Positions 12,890-18,409 of a DNA stretch of 24,668 nt are shown here, piece after piece. Made by a program: the position numbers and the translations under genes. The notes below the pieces were generated by a model that saw nothing but the letters and a program-made list of their open reading frames with translations, was not told the origin of the DNA and did no database searches. How positions within the stretch are numbered: the stretch's first letter is position 1; every line of letters begins with the position of its first letter. The DNA is from a virus (taxonomy: Duplodnaviria; Heunggongvirae; Uroviricota; Caudoviricetes), in the IMG/VR virus record IMGVR_UViG_2563366840_000014, positions 1-24,668 of that record; one strand, written 5' to 3'.

Positions 12890-13699
12890 ATGAATAATCT
12901 GATGGTTATTGATGGTATTGAAGTTCGTCGTGATGCTTATGGGCGTTACAGCCTGAACGATCTGCATCGCGCAGCAGTAGCATCTGGTGCAAATGCCAGA
13001 ACCAAGGAGCCAGGAAAGTTTCTTTCCAGCCAACAAACTGTTGAGCTTGTTCATGAATTAACCAACACCCAGAATTTGGGTGTTGACCCGGTGAGTGTGA
13101 TTCATGGGGGAAATGAACGGGGAACGTATGTCTGTAAGGAACTGGTGTATGCCTATGCAATGTGGATCAGCCCGTCATTCCATCTGAAGGTGATCCGTAC
13201 TTTCGATATGGTAACCAGCGCACCGGAAAAATTATCCGGACAGGCTGCTGACAAGATGCAGGCTGGCGTGATTCTGCTGGACTTTATGCGCCGGGAGTTA
13301 AATCTGTCTAACTCATCTGTGCTTGGGGCCTGTCAGAAACTCCAGGAGGCTGTTGGCTTACCGAATCTGGCACCGCGCTATGCCATTGATGCACCTGCTG
13401 ACGCGCCTGATGGCTCAAGCCGCCCGACGCTGTCGCTGAGTGCACTGCTGAAGCAGTATGGTATCCGCCTGACGGCTAATCAGGCATATCACCAGATGGT
13501 GAAGCTGGGGATCGTCGAGCAGCGCGAACGATACAGCCGTACCGGGATTAACAACATCAAAAAATTCTGGTCGCTGACGGCGAAAGGCTGCATGTTCGGC
13601 AAGAACATCACCAGTCCCGCAAATCCGCGTGAGACGCAGCCGCATTTCTTCGAATCCCGATTCCCTGAGCTGTTAAAGCTGCTCGATACCGTTCATTGA
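12890..13699 (+). CDS. KilA-N domain protein (antirepressor-like)
   Basis: N-terminal KilA-N pattern (IDGIEVRRDAYGRYSLNDLHRAAVA...); RBS AGAGGAG upstream. Confidence 0.7.
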   Translation: MNNLMVIDGIEVRRDAYGRYSLNDLHRAAVASGANARTKEPGKFLSSQQTVELVHELTNTQNLGVDPVSVIHGGNERGTYVCKELVYAYAMWISPSFHLKVIRTFDMVTSAPEKLSGQAADKMQAGVILLDFMRRELNLSNSSVLGACQKLQEAVGLPNLAPRYAIDAPADAPDGSSRPTLSLSALLKQYGIRLTANQAYHQMVKLGIVEQRERYSRTGINNIKKFWSLTAKGCMFGKNITSPANPRETQPHFFESRFPELLKLLDTVH

Positions 13700-13700
13700 G

Positions 13701-14696
13701 GTGACCGTGAGAGCACTACTGACCCCTGAAATAGCCCCGCGTATGGGGATTGTATTGTTCAGACCAGGTTCAGAGCTGATGCCCCTGTTTATGCAGGGGC
13801 GTGTCCTGCTGGAGCCTGAGCCGGAACGTTATTCATCTTTCGCCAGTGGTGCCGTTCCGGCGGCATCACAACCGCTGGCGGATGATCCTGCCGTTAGGGC
13901 CGTGTTCCGCAATGAGGCAGTGATCCGTCGTGCTGGTGGCGTGGAATGTCTTGAAAGCTGGTTACTTCGTGAAAAAGGCTGCCAGTGGCCTCATTCCGAC
14001 TGGCACAGCGAGAACATGACCACAATGCGACACGCTCCGGGCGCAATCCGTCTGTGCTGGCACTGCGATAACCAGCTGCGCGATCAGTTCACGGAACGGC
14101 TGGAATCAATGGCAACGGATAACTGTGCCCGCTGGGTGTTGTCTGTAGTCCGTCGGGATCTCGGTTTTGATGATAACCATGCCGTGACAATGCCGGAACT
14201 GTGCTGGTGGCTGATTCGTAATGACCTGGCGGATGCCTTACCTGAAAGCGCAGCCCGTAAGGCGCTGAGATTACCGAAACCTGTTGTGCCGTCTGTCACC
14301 CGGGAAAGTGACCTTGTGCCTTCGGTTCCTGCCACCAGCATCATCCAGGATAAAGCGAAAAAGGTGCTGGCGCTGAAAGTGGATCCGGAGTCGCCGGAGT
14401 CTTTTATGTTACGCCCAAAACGCCGCCGCTGGGTTAATGAAAAGTACACGCGCTGGGTTAAGACACAGCCGTGTGCATGTTGTGGAAAGCCTGCTGATGA
14501 TCCCCACCACCTGATAGGCCACGGTCAGGGTGGAATGGGTACAAAAGCGCATGACCTCTTTGTGTTGCCTTTGTGCAGAAAGCATCACGACGAGCTGCAT
14601 GCGGATACCGTGGCATTTGAAGAGAAGTATGGCTCTCAGCTGGAGCTGATATTTCGTTTTATCGATCGTGCGCTGGCAATTGGCGTACTGGCGTAA
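13701..14696 (+). CDS. DUF968-family protein with C-terminal HNH-like His/Cys motif
   Basis: C-terminal CACCGKP...HHLIGHGQGG...HDLFVLPLCRKHHDELH; start may be GTG 13707. Confidence 0.65.
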   Translation: MTVRALLTPEIAPRMGIVLFRPGSELMPLFMQGRVLLEPEPERYSSFASGAVPAASQPLADDPAVRAVFRNEAVIRRAGGVECLESWLLREKGCQWPHSDWHSENMTTMRHAPGAIRLCWHCDNQLRDQFTERLESMATDNCARWVLSVVRRDLGFDDNHAVTMPELCWWLIRNDLADALPESAARKALRLPKPVVPSVTRESDLVPSVPATSIIQDKAKKVLALKVDPESPESFMLRPKRRRWVNEKYTRWVKTQPCACCGKPADDPHHLIGHGQGGMGTKAHDLFVLPLCRKHHDELHADTVAFEEKYGSQLELIFRFIDRALAIGVLA

Positions 14697-14709
14697 GTGG
14701 AGAACGAGC

Positions 14710-15462
14710 ATGAACCTTGAAGCCTTACCAAAATATTACTCCCCAAAATCTCCAAAATTGAGCGATGACGCACCGGCGACAGGCTCAGGTGGTTTAACGA
14801 TTACGGATGTGATGGCTGCGCAGGGGATGGTGCAGTCGAAAGCACCGCTTGGGTTTGCCTTATTCCTGGCAAAAGTTGGTGTTCAGGATCCTCAATTTGC
14901 GATTGAAGGTCTGCTCAATTACGCGATGGCACTGGATAACCCGACATTGAACAAATTGAGTGAAGAAACCCGGTTACAGATCATCCCTTACCTTGTGAAT
15001 TTTGCCTTTGCTGATTATTCCAGGTCTGCGGCAAGTAAGGCTCGCTGTGAGCATTGTGCTGGTACTGGATTTCATAATGTATTGCGCGAAGTGGTGAAAC
15101 ACTCCAGAAGCGGGGAATCTGTTATCAAGGAAGAGTGGGTGAAGGAACTATGTCAGCATTGCCATGGTAAGGGAGAAGTCAGCACAGCGTGCAGAGGGTG
15201 TAAGGGTAAAGGTATTGTCCTGGATGAAAAAAGAACCCGGCTTCATGGTGTGCCTGTTTATAAGATTTGTGGGCGTTGCAATGGCAACCGGTTTAGCCGT
15301 TTACCAACCACACTGGCGCGGCATCATGTCCAGAAGCTGGTACCGGATCTGACGGATTATCAGTGGTACAAAGGATATGCAGATGTCATTGATAAACTGG
15401 TGACAAAGTGCTGGCAGGAAGAAGCATATGCTGAGGCGCAATTAAGAAAAGTGACGAGATAA
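14710..15462 (+). CDS. Late-gene antiterminator Q-like protein
   Basis: Start at internal Met with GGAGA RBS; several CxxC zinc-finger-like motifs; followed by a promoter and terminator arrangement. Confidence 0.7.
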   Translation: MNLEALPKYYSPKSPKLSDDAPATGSGGLTITDVMAAQGMVQSKAPLGFALFLAKVGVQDPQFAIEGLLNYAMALDNPTLNKLSEETRLQIIPYLVNFAFADYSRSAASKARCEHCAGTGFHNVLREVVKHSRSGESVIKEEWVKELCQHCHGKGEVSTACRGCKGKGIVLDEKRTRLHGVPVYKICGRCNGNRFSRLPTTLARHHVQKLVPDLTDYQWYKGYADVIDKLVTKCWQEEAYAEAQLRKVTR

Positions 15463-15493
15463 ATGATTTTCGCCGAAGATGGCGACATGATTC

Positions 15494-17218: not shown

Positions 17219-17676
17219 AGACGAGTTATTGGGCGCTCATTTTAACGTTTATTGCTTGTATTGCTGGTGGTCTTGTCTGGTCAGCTAATCATTACCACAA
17301 TAAAGCCATTGAATACAAAAAACAGCGCGATGAAAACGCTATGGCATTAGATTCGGCTATGGCGACGATCTCTGATATGCAGAAGCGTCAACGTGACGTA
17401 GCAGAACTCGATGCCAGATATACAAAGGAGCTTGCTGATGCTAACGCCACTATCGAAAGTCTCCGTGCTGATGTTTCTGCTGGTCGTAAGCGCCTGCAAG
17501 TCTCCGCCACCTGTGCAAAGTCAACGACCGGAGCCAGCAGCATGGGCGATGGAGAAAGCCCAAGACTTACAGCAGATGCTGAACTCAATTATTACCGTCT
17601 CCGAAGTGGAATAGACAGGATAACCGCGCAGGTTAACTACCTGCAGGAGTACATCAGGGCTCAGTGCCTGAAATAA
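17215..17676 (+). CDS. Rz-like i-spanin
   Basis: N-terminal transmembrane segment followed by coiled-coil-like sequence; contains an embedded lipoprotein ORF in the +1 frame. Confidence 0.75.
   Translation: MKTSYWALILTFIACIAGGLVWSANHYHNKAIEYKKQRDENAMALDSAMATISDMQKRQRDVAELDARYTKELADANATIESLRADVSAGRKRLQVSATCAKSTTGASSMGDGESPRLTADAELNYYRLRSGIDRITAQVNYLQEYIRAQCLK
17438..17614 (+). CDS. Rz1-like o-spanin lipoprotein embedded in Rz
   Basis: Signal peptide with lipobox LVVSAC and Pro-rich mature region; AAGGAG RBS 7 nt before the ATG at 17438. Confidence 0.65.
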   Translation: MLTPLSKVSVLMFLLVVSACKSPPPVQSQRPEPAAWAMEKAQDLQQMLNSIITVSEVE

Positions 17677-17707
17677 TTTTTTTGCAAATCACAAAGTCCA
17701 TTTAATG

Positions 17708-17731
17708 AGCCTCGCGATGCGGGGCTTTTTT
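17708..17731 (+). terminator. Rho-independent terminator after the lysis cassette
   Basis: Stem AGCCTCGC / GCGGGGCT with loop GAT, followed by TTTTTT. Confidence 0.6.
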
Positions 17732-17878
17732 ATGTCCGCAGTAAACGCGCTTCACACGCGCGACTTATGAACACAGAACCTTTCAGGATGACCCTTGAGG
17801 ATGCCGGTTTGGTGATCGGTACCTTTCTGTGGGCCGGAATCCTGTGTGACAAGGTTCATCACTAAAAGGTAATTACTG

Positions 17879-18409
17879 ATGAAGTACCCAACAGTTATTG
17901 TCAATGGTGTGTCCGTTCGTGTTGATGAGGATGGACGCTACAACTTAAACGATCTCCATGCAGCAGCAGTTGCAAATGGAGAGGCTACAGAGCAACAGCG
18001 CCCAAGCCAGTTTTTGCGTAGCGCGCAGATAAAACGCTTCATAAAAGCACTGGAGGCCAAAGTGCAAAAAAGCACTTTGGAACAAATTCAGCCACTTAAA
18101 ATAATCAAAGGTGGTGCAGAACCAGGTGTGTGGGGTGTTGAACTTCTGGCAATCAGATATGCAGCATGGATTAAGCCGGAATTTGAAATCGAAGTTTATG
18201 AAGTTTTCAAAACGGTTGTCCGTCTCGGCGTTGGCGCAATGTCCCGTCTGAATAGAATCGATCACATCATCAATACTGAAACCAAAGCGATAAGCCAGTG
18301 CGCAAGCCAAATGGCTAAGTGGGGCGTTGGTGGGCGAAAAAGATTGCTTCATGTTGCACGTGAGAGAGCGGCAAATGAAGTGCAAATGTATTTGCCCGGA
18401 ATGGTGTGA
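17879..18409 (+). CDS. KilA-N domain protein (second paralog)
   Basis: N-terminus (VIVNGVSVRVDEDGRYNLNDLHAAAVA...) is clearly paralogous to the 12890-13699 protein. Confidence 0.65.
   Translation: MKYPTVIVNGVSVRVDEDGRYNLNDLHAAAVANGEATEQQRPSQFLRSAQIKRFIKALEAKVQKSTLEQIQPLKIIKGGAEPGVWGVELLAIRYAAWIKPEFEIEVYEVFKTVVRLGVGAMSRLNRIDHIINTETKAISQCASQMAKWGVGGRKRLLHVARERAANEVQMYLPGMV

Follow-up and report, generated by a model that had tools for sequence, protein, structure and literature searches.

Two separately inherited KilA-N genes of an SfV-like Escherichia coli prophage, one behind a conserved leader predicted to hide its ribosome-binding site

Introduction

Here, we analyse two genes for proteins with an N-terminal KilA-N domain, ORF A (12890-13699, + strand, 269 aa) and ORF B (17879-18409, + strand, 176 aa), together with the RNA leader that precedes ORF B, in a 24,668-nt stretch of DNA (IMG/VR record IMGVR_UViG_2563366840_000014, positions 1 to 24,668; hereafter the window) from an SfV-like myovirus prophage of Escherichia coli. 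A Bro network of phage proteins is said to have been recognised by Iyer et al. in 2002. Within this network, phage regulators swap domains, recognised heads such as KilA-N, Bro-N, Rha, P22_AR_N, ORF6N and AntA being combined with C-terminal modules (PMC10111431, citing Iyer et al. 2002).

The closest described counterparts are Roi of HK022 and Rha of P22 and phi80, which occupy the same two slots as ORF A and ORF B: Roi adjoins rusA and Q, and Rha lies after Rz behind a terminator. Like the proteins studied here, both join a Bro-network DNA-binding head to a swappable C-terminal module, and the leader RNA of ORF B is also found at phi80 rha. They differ in that their head is Phage_pRha instead of KilA-N, that Roi ends in an ANT/KilAC domain not present in A, and that the Rha tail is unrelated to that of B. 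In P22, rha (orf201) belongs to the late operon and has detrimental effects when IHF is missing (PMC4936722), and in the phi80 record the gene bears the annotation 'DNA synthesis inhibition in IHF- hosts'. HK022 Roi, to go by the title of reference 59 in PMC3430580, inhibits lytic growth of the phage in IHF mutants; Roi is also carried by Shiga-toxin (Stx) phages (PMC3430580), which in addition carry a late 'ant'. To the extent that PMC4936722 and the title of that reference describe them, Roi and Rha are dispensable proteins that inhibit phage growth in IHF-deficient hosts. This suggests them as the nearest functional leads for A and B, which by analogy may be dispensable DNA-binding modulators and not necessarily antirepressors.

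The Stx-phage protein d_ant and its Min27 counterpart Ant (P22_AR_N head and ORF11CD3 tail) resemble B in a different way. Their gene lies in the late lysis region with the same leader directly upstream, and their ORF11CD3 tail appears related to the tail of B through bridging sequences. In contrast to B, they have a P22_AR_N head, and the gene is located between R and Rz instead of after Rz. Moreover, d_ant has been proposed to be controlled by the small RNA 24B_1 inside its coding region (PMC4426718), for which the window has no counterpart. A similar regulatory layout is known from isrK-orf45-anrP of Gifsy-1 and c4-ant of P1/P7, in which a Bro-network gene is preceded by a structured leader that is made when polymerase reads through a terminator and that is translationally silent (PMC4825925); in Gifsy-1 this gene encodes AnrP, an ORF6N protein. 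As in the leader described below, the nucleotide sequence of the Gifsy-1 leader is conserved and its encoded peptide is not (PMC4825925). However, the Rfam models isrK, C4 and c4-a1b1 match Gifsy-1 and not the window, which marks the two leaders as different RNA families, and in the window no trans-acting partner RNA is evident and the upstream ORF is not conserved.

P1 KilA and the fungal APSES proteins (Mbp1/Swi4) are connected to A and B through the KilA-N family PF04383, which both proteins match significantly. KilA kills its host; killing is not known to map to the KilA-N domain. The annotation of ST104 notes a similarity of its B orthologue to KilA, but the likeness of KilA to A and B covers the head only. 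BstA of the Salmonella prophage BTP1 is likewise a two-domain prophage protein with a KilA-N-like N-terminus (PMC8585504), from which A and B differ in C-terminal domain, genomic position and expected expression.

Compared with these systems, the gene pair is ordinary, and both genes are already named in public annotation. A and B are separately inherited members of the Bro network in two usual accessory slots of lambdoid phages. The only unexpected feature is the leader of ORF B, a conserved RNA that is predicted to fold and to hide the ribosome-binding site, and it is the only one that may be new.

Results

A and B share a KilA-N head and no more

The initial annotation had described two proteins with obviously related N-termini, different C-termini and locations in different modules, and these descriptive claims were borne out. 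Both ORFs are present on the + strand, and the motif DG[IV][ES]VR..GRY[SN]LNDLH[RA]AAVA is found in A and in B. In BLASTP, the single alignment (E 2e-22) spans 109 N-terminal residues, in which positions 5-109 of A and 6-114 of B are 36% identical; outside this head there was no match. Comparison of the two family profiles gave a probability of 99.6% (E 4e-24, 106 columns), with the match ending at residue 110 of A and residue 115 of B and no homology past these N-terminal 106 columns. Both proteins pass the Pfam KilA-N model PF04383 (cutoff 23.8 bits), A with 79.2 bits at aa 7-109 (nt 12908-13216, +) and B with 64.8 bits (E 7e-18) at aa 9-113 (nt 17903-18217, +). Furthermore, the two are grouped in PHROG 129, and RefSeq labels each of them 'KilA-N domain-containing protein' (WP_000877024.1 for B). 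The AlphaFold2 (AF2) model of A superposes on the DNA-binding domain of Mbp1, consistent with the APSES-like alpha/beta DNA-binding fold of the KilA-N family. The similarity is thus real KilA-N homology, far above chance and no alignment artefact, and it is confined to the head.

Behind the head, the two proteins are built from unrelated modules, neither of which has a direct Pfam match even when fragments are searched. Structure prediction, which had been proposed as a check on the C-terminal halves, succeeded for A, where the C-terminal domain is folded in the model, and failed for B. The model of A (mean pLDDT 75) comprises the head (residues 1-110), a helical hairpin (115-155), a low-confidence linker (161-176) and a C-terminal domain of two helices and beta hairpins (180-269). 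For this domain, the Foldseek hits in the PDB lean, at a non-significant level (E > 0.2), towards the winged-helix proteins DdrC, RTP and MarR/PadR, and the domain is possibly of winged-helix type. An assignment of the domain to KilAC/ANT was rejected, since Pfam was null even on fragments and the A profile aligned to HK022 Roi only at an hhalign E of 0.35. The middle and C-terminal parts of A do occur in other combinations (phrog_8274, phrog_6486), and no named module came out of this comparison; sequence searches for solved relatives of A or B found none. Within the A family, residues ~30-75 inside the KilA-N head are hypervariable with several alternative insertions, and the C-terminal 150 residues are near-invariant. 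The best-conserved part of the family is the C-terminal domain, which is the opposite of what would be expected if the head were the conserved functional core.

The tail of B (aa ~115-176, nt 18221-18406, +) is predicted to be helical, and its 60 residues are conserved within the family. Its profile aligned to ORF11CD3-type tails over 60 columns (hhalign probability 67%, E 5e-5). The most distant proteins that share the tail, P0253 and P0257, show full-length sub-threshold matches to PF10549 (E ~2e-3, 18-19 bits against a cutoff of 25). Pfam found no match to the B tail itself, even at E <= 10, and a library-wide phmmer search with it returned only KilA-N-headed proteins and fragments. A likeness to the Rha tail that had been noticed by eye was rejected (hhalign E 0.2-0.6). 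ORF11CD3 tails follow KilA-N heads as well as the P22_AR_N head of Stx-phage 'Ant'. Both A and B can accordingly be placed in the Bro network, B by a recognised head with a C-terminal module that is apparently shared with other heads, and A by its recognised head only. Different C-termini on one head are the norm in this network and no sign of divergence after duplication.

The two genes come from separate phage lineages

Counterparts of ORF A with 97-99.9% nucleotide identity are found in SfV (orf44), mEp460, cdtI, SKA5 and Stx2c phages, which makes A, judged by sequence, a gene of the SfV orf44/mEp460 type. It is present in 2293 of 5426 complete E. coli genomes (42%). ORF B occurs in 79 of these genomes (1.5%), and its counterparts in the Salmonella phages ST104, SE1, PS119 and ST64B are 88-94% identical. 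Counterparts with 94-99.9% nucleotide identity come from lineages in which the fetched stretches show only one of the two genes annotated: SfV and SKA5 lack an annotated B-type gene, and ST104 and the P22-like E. coli prophages of strains 317, ExPEC XM and E62 lack an annotated A-type KilA-N gene; these six made up the inspection, which left aside SE1, PS119 and ST64B on the one side and mEp460, cdtI and the Stx2c phages on the other.

The borders of an exchanged segment can be read from comparisons with relatives of the window. In blastn against SKA5, the closest phage, homology ends at 17297 inside Rz (17215-17676, +) and restarts at 18725, just before the HNH gene. The intervening mosaic block (17298-18724, +) holds the 3' part of Rz, a terminator, the leader, ORF B and the downstream spacer, and across positions 17274-18675 the window matches a P22-like prophage of E. 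coli strain 317 at 96% identity. ORF B hence entered the SfV-like prophage from a P22-like phage along with the 3' end of Rz. Given the separate lineages and the swapped block, A and B were brought together by mosaic recombination, and the term 'paralogue' is valid for them only loosely, in the sense of homologous heads.

Each gene sits in a recognisable slot. ORF A lies between rusA and the DUF968 and Q genes, in the order methylase, LexA-like protein, RusA, A, DUF968/HNH, Q. ORF B lies between Rz and the HNH and terminase genes, in the order two holins, GH19 endolysin, Rz, B, HNH, terminase small and large subunits, portal and HK97-type protease. In ST104, strain 317, ExPEC XM and E62, four P22-like phages or prophages whose lysis and terminase genes are unrelated, B is always found ~200 nt past the last lysis-side gene and before the packaging genes; in ST104 and strain 317 Rz itself comes last, and in ExPEC XM and E62 a further small ORF follows Rz. 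P22 and phi80 carry rha at this position, and relatives of the window fill it with GrlR-like (SKA5), Rha-family (APEC37), Gp49 and DUF2560 genes. Both slots can be occupied in one phage. In HK022, Roi (Phage_pRha + ANT) adjoins rusA and Q, and Rz is followed by a gene of KilA-N + P63C type whose leader is a divergent version of that of ORF B. The ExPEC XM prophage combines a KilAC protein in the nin region with an ORF B orthologue.

A conserved RNA structure pairs the Shine-Dalgarno sequence of ORF B

Rz and ORF B are separated by 202 nt. An intrinsic terminator-like hairpin, GAGCCTCGC-GAT-GCGGGGCTT, begins 31 nt past the Rz stop codon and is followed by a T-run (17707-17733, hairpin 17707-17727, +). 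It is the best-scoring site in our scan, and its counterparts in phi80, HK544 and HK75 carry the annotation of a rho-independent terminator. Behind it lies the structured leader (17736-17885, +), which the covariance model R1 finds once in the window, with 172 bits (E 1e-39) as opposed to 15.6 bits on the reverse strand. A first hairpin, P0, has the form GCGC-N7-GCGC (17746-17750 with 17758-17762, +). The outer stem (all +) pairs ACCUUU (17778-17783) with AAAGGU (17865-17870), AG (17785-86) with CU (17862-63), GAUGA (17787-91) with UCAUC (17856-60) and CCUUG (17793-97) with CAAGG (17850-54), and it encloses a variable apical region (17798-17849, +). The AAAGGU strand is the Shine-Dalgarno sequence of ORF B, 9 nt before the ATG, which is thereby paired in the outer stem.

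Covariation supports this helix in two kinds of alignment. Our sample consisted of 320 IMG/VR loci collected through four different downstream proteins, which reduced to 131 unique leaders, 46 of them with <93% mutual identity. On a MAFFT alignment made blind to structure, RNAalifold reported strongly covarying pairs (CG:23/GC:15, UA:19/CG:17, GC:22/AU:15), and the outer stem projected onto this alignment was 82% paired, with double changes in 14 of 23 pairs, a result matched by 0-2 of 500 shuffles. In the alignment fitted to the model, compensatory changes were seen in 31 of 37 pairs, 88.4% of cells were paired compared with 75.5% in shuffles, and the covariation score was 0.437 as opposed to 0.21 in shuffles (0 of 500) and <=0.097 when partners were slid. 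RNAalifold on this model-based alignment (A6) kept P0 and 17 outer pairs, with compensatory change in 19 of these 21. Examples of the pair types are AU:36/GC:13, GC:25/UA:19, CG:31/GC:16 and UA:30/CG:18, and exchanges were also found within the Shine-Dalgarno pairs (UA:38/CG:9, UA:45/AU:3). Since that alignment was fitted to the model, its figures lean towards structure, and the MAFFT results serve as the independent check. G-U pairs are frequent in the stem and, together with the strand difference of 172 to 15.6 bits, point to an RNA of the + strand. A search with R1 returned 57 copies in 50 sources, every one on the coding strand and abutting a start codon. The helix is therefore conserved, covarying, specific to the coding strand and paired with the Shine-Dalgarno sequence, as expected of a leader that sequesters a ribosome-binding site.

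ORF A is different in this respect. R1 detects no such element upstream of it even with filters off, and its strong Shine-Dalgarno sequence AAGAGGAG (12873-12880, +), 9 nt before the ATG, is exposed, unlike that of ORF B.

We searched the leader region for known relatives and for elements that might act on it. Rfam gave no family match to the leader in the window or in five other leader-bearing loci (E <= 0.5-1). The C4/isrK RNAs (RF01695, RF01394, RF03163) were rejected as candidates, because these models do not match the leader yet strongly match Gifsy-1; homology to the isrK/orf45 leader was rejected as well, R1 finding nothing in Gifsy-1. A scan between the terminator and the ATG of B found no sigma-70-like promoter, the leader DNA contains no IHF consensus at <=1 mismatch, and no RNA complementary to either stem strand is encoded elsewhere in the window at <=3 mismatches. 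The leader contains an upstream ORF, MNTEPFRMTLEDAGLVIGTFLWAGILCDKVHH (17767-17865, +), whose 32 codons encode a hydrophobic peptide and whose TAA directly abuts the Shine-Dalgarno sequence. ATG-started upstream ORFs ending near the main start were found in 15 of 50 distinct leaders, and none in ST104, where the post-lysis region is 92% identical. With only 15 of 50 variants comparable, a conserved coupling of the orf45 type was rejected, and as it is not conserved among leader variants the upstream ORF is probably incidental; in the lineage of the window, its translation could unfold the stem.

The leader is widespread and precedes different genes

A conserved leader region precedes a variety of genes in 369 phage records. 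Among 5426 E. coli genomes, 854 contain it, with 2725 occurrences in all, in front of genes for KilA-N, Rha and 'antirepressor N-terminal domain' proteins; the genomes sampled have up to 8 copies each, and O157:H7 strains typically ~5. Genes behind it include those for Rha, three kinds of KilA-N protein, P22_AR_N+ORF11CD3, N15 gp59-like and HNH_3+AP2 proteins. Further copies were located in phage loci L008 (2060-2205 and 3654-3782), L009 (2490-2638), L010 (2062-2207) and L411 (7546-7698). We see an even chance that the leader represents an undescribed, widespread family of cis-regulatory RNAs of enterobacterial temperate phages, gating interchangeable Bro-network genes of the late operon.

Tandem leader-plus-gene cassettes were also observed, at L035 (1355-1507 and 2451-2592), L235 (1355-1507 and 2719-2868), L250, L221, L313, L105 and L008 (phi80). 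Each unit has its own leader and the cargo differs, such as Ant followed by KilA-N+ORF11CD3, KilA-N followed by HNH_3+AP2, or, in phi80, rha followed by the N15 gp59-like gene. These tandem copies suggest an array of cassettes where the lysis region ends.

Discussion

Taking these results together, we consider it probable, though well short of certain, that A and B are separately inherited Bro-network proteins in two lambdoid slots that act as dispensable DNA-binding modulators, B being made late and gated by its leader. A would be made with the delayed-early genes. B would be a late-operon cassette, transcribed only by antiterminated (Q-modified) polymerase, given the intrinsic terminator upstream and the lack of a promoter-like site in front of the gene. 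With its Shine-Dalgarno sequence locked in a conserved long stem, translation of B might be kept low, or be gated, so that the stem would have to be melted, remodelled or cleaved before translation can proceed. Activation through cleavage of such a stem has a precedent in the lambda N leader, which RNase III processes. A host factor that opens or cleaves the leader may exist, candidates being RNase III, temperature and IHF-linked physiology. Both proteins would bind DNA through the KilA-N head, with the C-terminal modules setting the partner or the oligomeric state, and would modulate phage or host transcription or replication during lytic growth, as their positional counterparts Roi (HK022) and Rha (P22/phi80) do.

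Several points weigh against this interpretation. The naming sources for A and B give only 'KilA-N domain-containing protein', so their proposed functions are conjectural, and the analogy to Roi and Rha is positional and at the level of the class, not one of orthology. The C-terminal domain of A had no Foldseek match in the PDB with E < 0.2, the AF2 model of B, built from 26 close sequences, reached a pLDDT of 48 and is unusable, and the assignment of the B tail as a divergent ORF11CD3-like module draws on sub-threshold and transitive matches. Late-only transcription of B is predicted from the terminator and the lack of a promoter-like site, and the putative regulatory role of the leader from its structure. 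Finally, the apical part of the leader is variable and missing from some variants, and either of two alternative foldings gives ~75% of cells paired.

Other explanations were weighed against the same evidence. The initial annotation took A and B for paralogues from a duplication, and such an origin in one phage lineage, with C-termini that then diverged towards two targets, appears very improbable to us: a common motif (GRYxLNDLHxAAVA) and a common PHROG (129) speak for it, but the heads are only 36% identical, near-identical orthologues of each gene occur in separate lineages for which the fetched stretches show no annotation of the other, B lies in a block imported from P22-like phages, and the C-termini are unrelated modules, that of B apparently being found with other heads as well. 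The annotation also offered antirepression or host killing as roles, a label that is generic for KilA-N proteins and that our analysis neither supports nor excludes. We consider it unlikely that A and/or B inactivate the CI-type repressor of their own prophage, encoded by the LexA-family gene at 8173-8826 (-), or that of co-resident prophages and so promote induction. Genes in the same slot with the same leader do carry an antirepressor annotation, the nin slot of ExPEC XM and HK022 holds KilAC/ANT proteins, and AnrP, the Bro-network protein of Gifsy-1, raises transcription of the antQ operon when expressed (PMC4825925); Stx-phage d_ant has been proposed as a CI antagonist, on sequence-based and indirect grounds (PMC4426718). 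Against this, Pfam finds no ANT/KilAC, P22_AR_N/C or AntA domain in A or B, our literature search found no repressor-binding data for any KilA-N protein, A lies in the pR operon, which the repressor itself controls, and B would be made only late, after the lytic decision.

A role in defence, as BstA-like abortive-infection or superinfection-exclusion proteins that sense incoming phage DNA via the KilA-N head, is rather improbable for A and/or B. Its appeal lies in the build of BstA, a prophage-encoded protein with a KilA-N-like N-terminal domain and an unrelated C-terminal domain (PMC8585504), and in a weak PADLOC match of A to the candidate family PDC-S22 that covers the KilA-N core only (E 1.7e-5). 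PADLOC was, however, null for BstA and any other named defence family in both proteins (its library was not checked for a BstA model) and gave no match at all for B, neither gene adjoins the immunity region, and B is unlikely to be expressed in lysogens, since it lies in the late operon behind a terminator with a sequestered ribosome-binding site. It appears similarly improbable that the ORF B cassette is a selfish mobile module recombining at conserved flanks, with leader conservation a product of homogenisation instead of RNA function. The same leader precedes unrelated genes, including nuclease-type HNH_3+AP2 genes, cassettes occur in tandem and at varying positions (after Rz, or between R and Rz), and Bro-network heads have been likened to homing-endonuclease folds (PMC10111431). 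Yet homogenisation gives identity and not double substitutions that preserve pairing or G-U pairs on one strand, the reverse strand scores 15.6 and not 172 bits, and the paired 3' strand coincides exactly with the Shine-Dalgarno sequence.

By itself, the KilA-N gene pair carries little weight and illustrates mosaic assembly and domain shuffling in textbook form. The class to which both genes belong is common, nearly all of its members lack a known function, and effects on phage growth or induction are known for some counterparts (Rha, Roi, d_ant). A possible RNA switch such as the leader is experimentally tractable and could be used to ask when and why such proteins are made, including the versions in Shiga-toxin phages. 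If a host factor opens the leader, this could explain the 40-year-old Rha phenotype, the failure of phage growth in IHF mutants, and if the leader gates the whole class, it would bear on the control of d_ant in Stx phages.

Further features of the window

Positions 17200-19200 are 100% identical to prophages of APEC O78, YD786 and other strains. The spacer downstream of ORF B (18410-18724, 315 nt) contains no annotated gene and is shared with P22-like prophages up to 18675; just past the B stop codon, 18422-18493 (+) shows a weak and non-significant match to the Rfam RNA Proteo-phage-1 (23 bits against a gathering threshold of 42, E 0.94). The slot of ORF B in SKA5 (L001, 8855-9175) encodes a 106-aa protein with a borderline GrlR match (26.7 bits, cutoff 26.8) and is without leader. 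GrlR is a negative regulator of type III secretion.

ORF A is part of a RusA-A-DUF968 block of the nin region (12481-14696, +), assigned by Pfam: rusA (12481-12870, +) precedes it, and a little-studied gene for a 331-aa DUF968/HNHc_6 protein, a putative nuclease of the YdfU type, follows (13701-14696, +). The latter begins 1 base after the A stop codon and nearly always accompanies A. The RusA-A-DUF968 order with fixed spacing is kept in 74 of 80 IMG/VR loci and likewise in SfV, SKA5 and APEC O78. The Q antiterminator gene (14668-15462, +) comes after the DUF968 gene. No tRNAs were found in the window. Weak and non-significant Rfam matches to istR and rsmX (15470-15600, +) overlap a strong terminator-like hairpin (15570-15591, +) ~110 nt past the Q stop codon, which is presumably tR' of the late operon. 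Two genes upstream of ORF A, positions 12158-12484 (+) encode a 108-aa LexA-family protein, a little-studied gene of the nin region.

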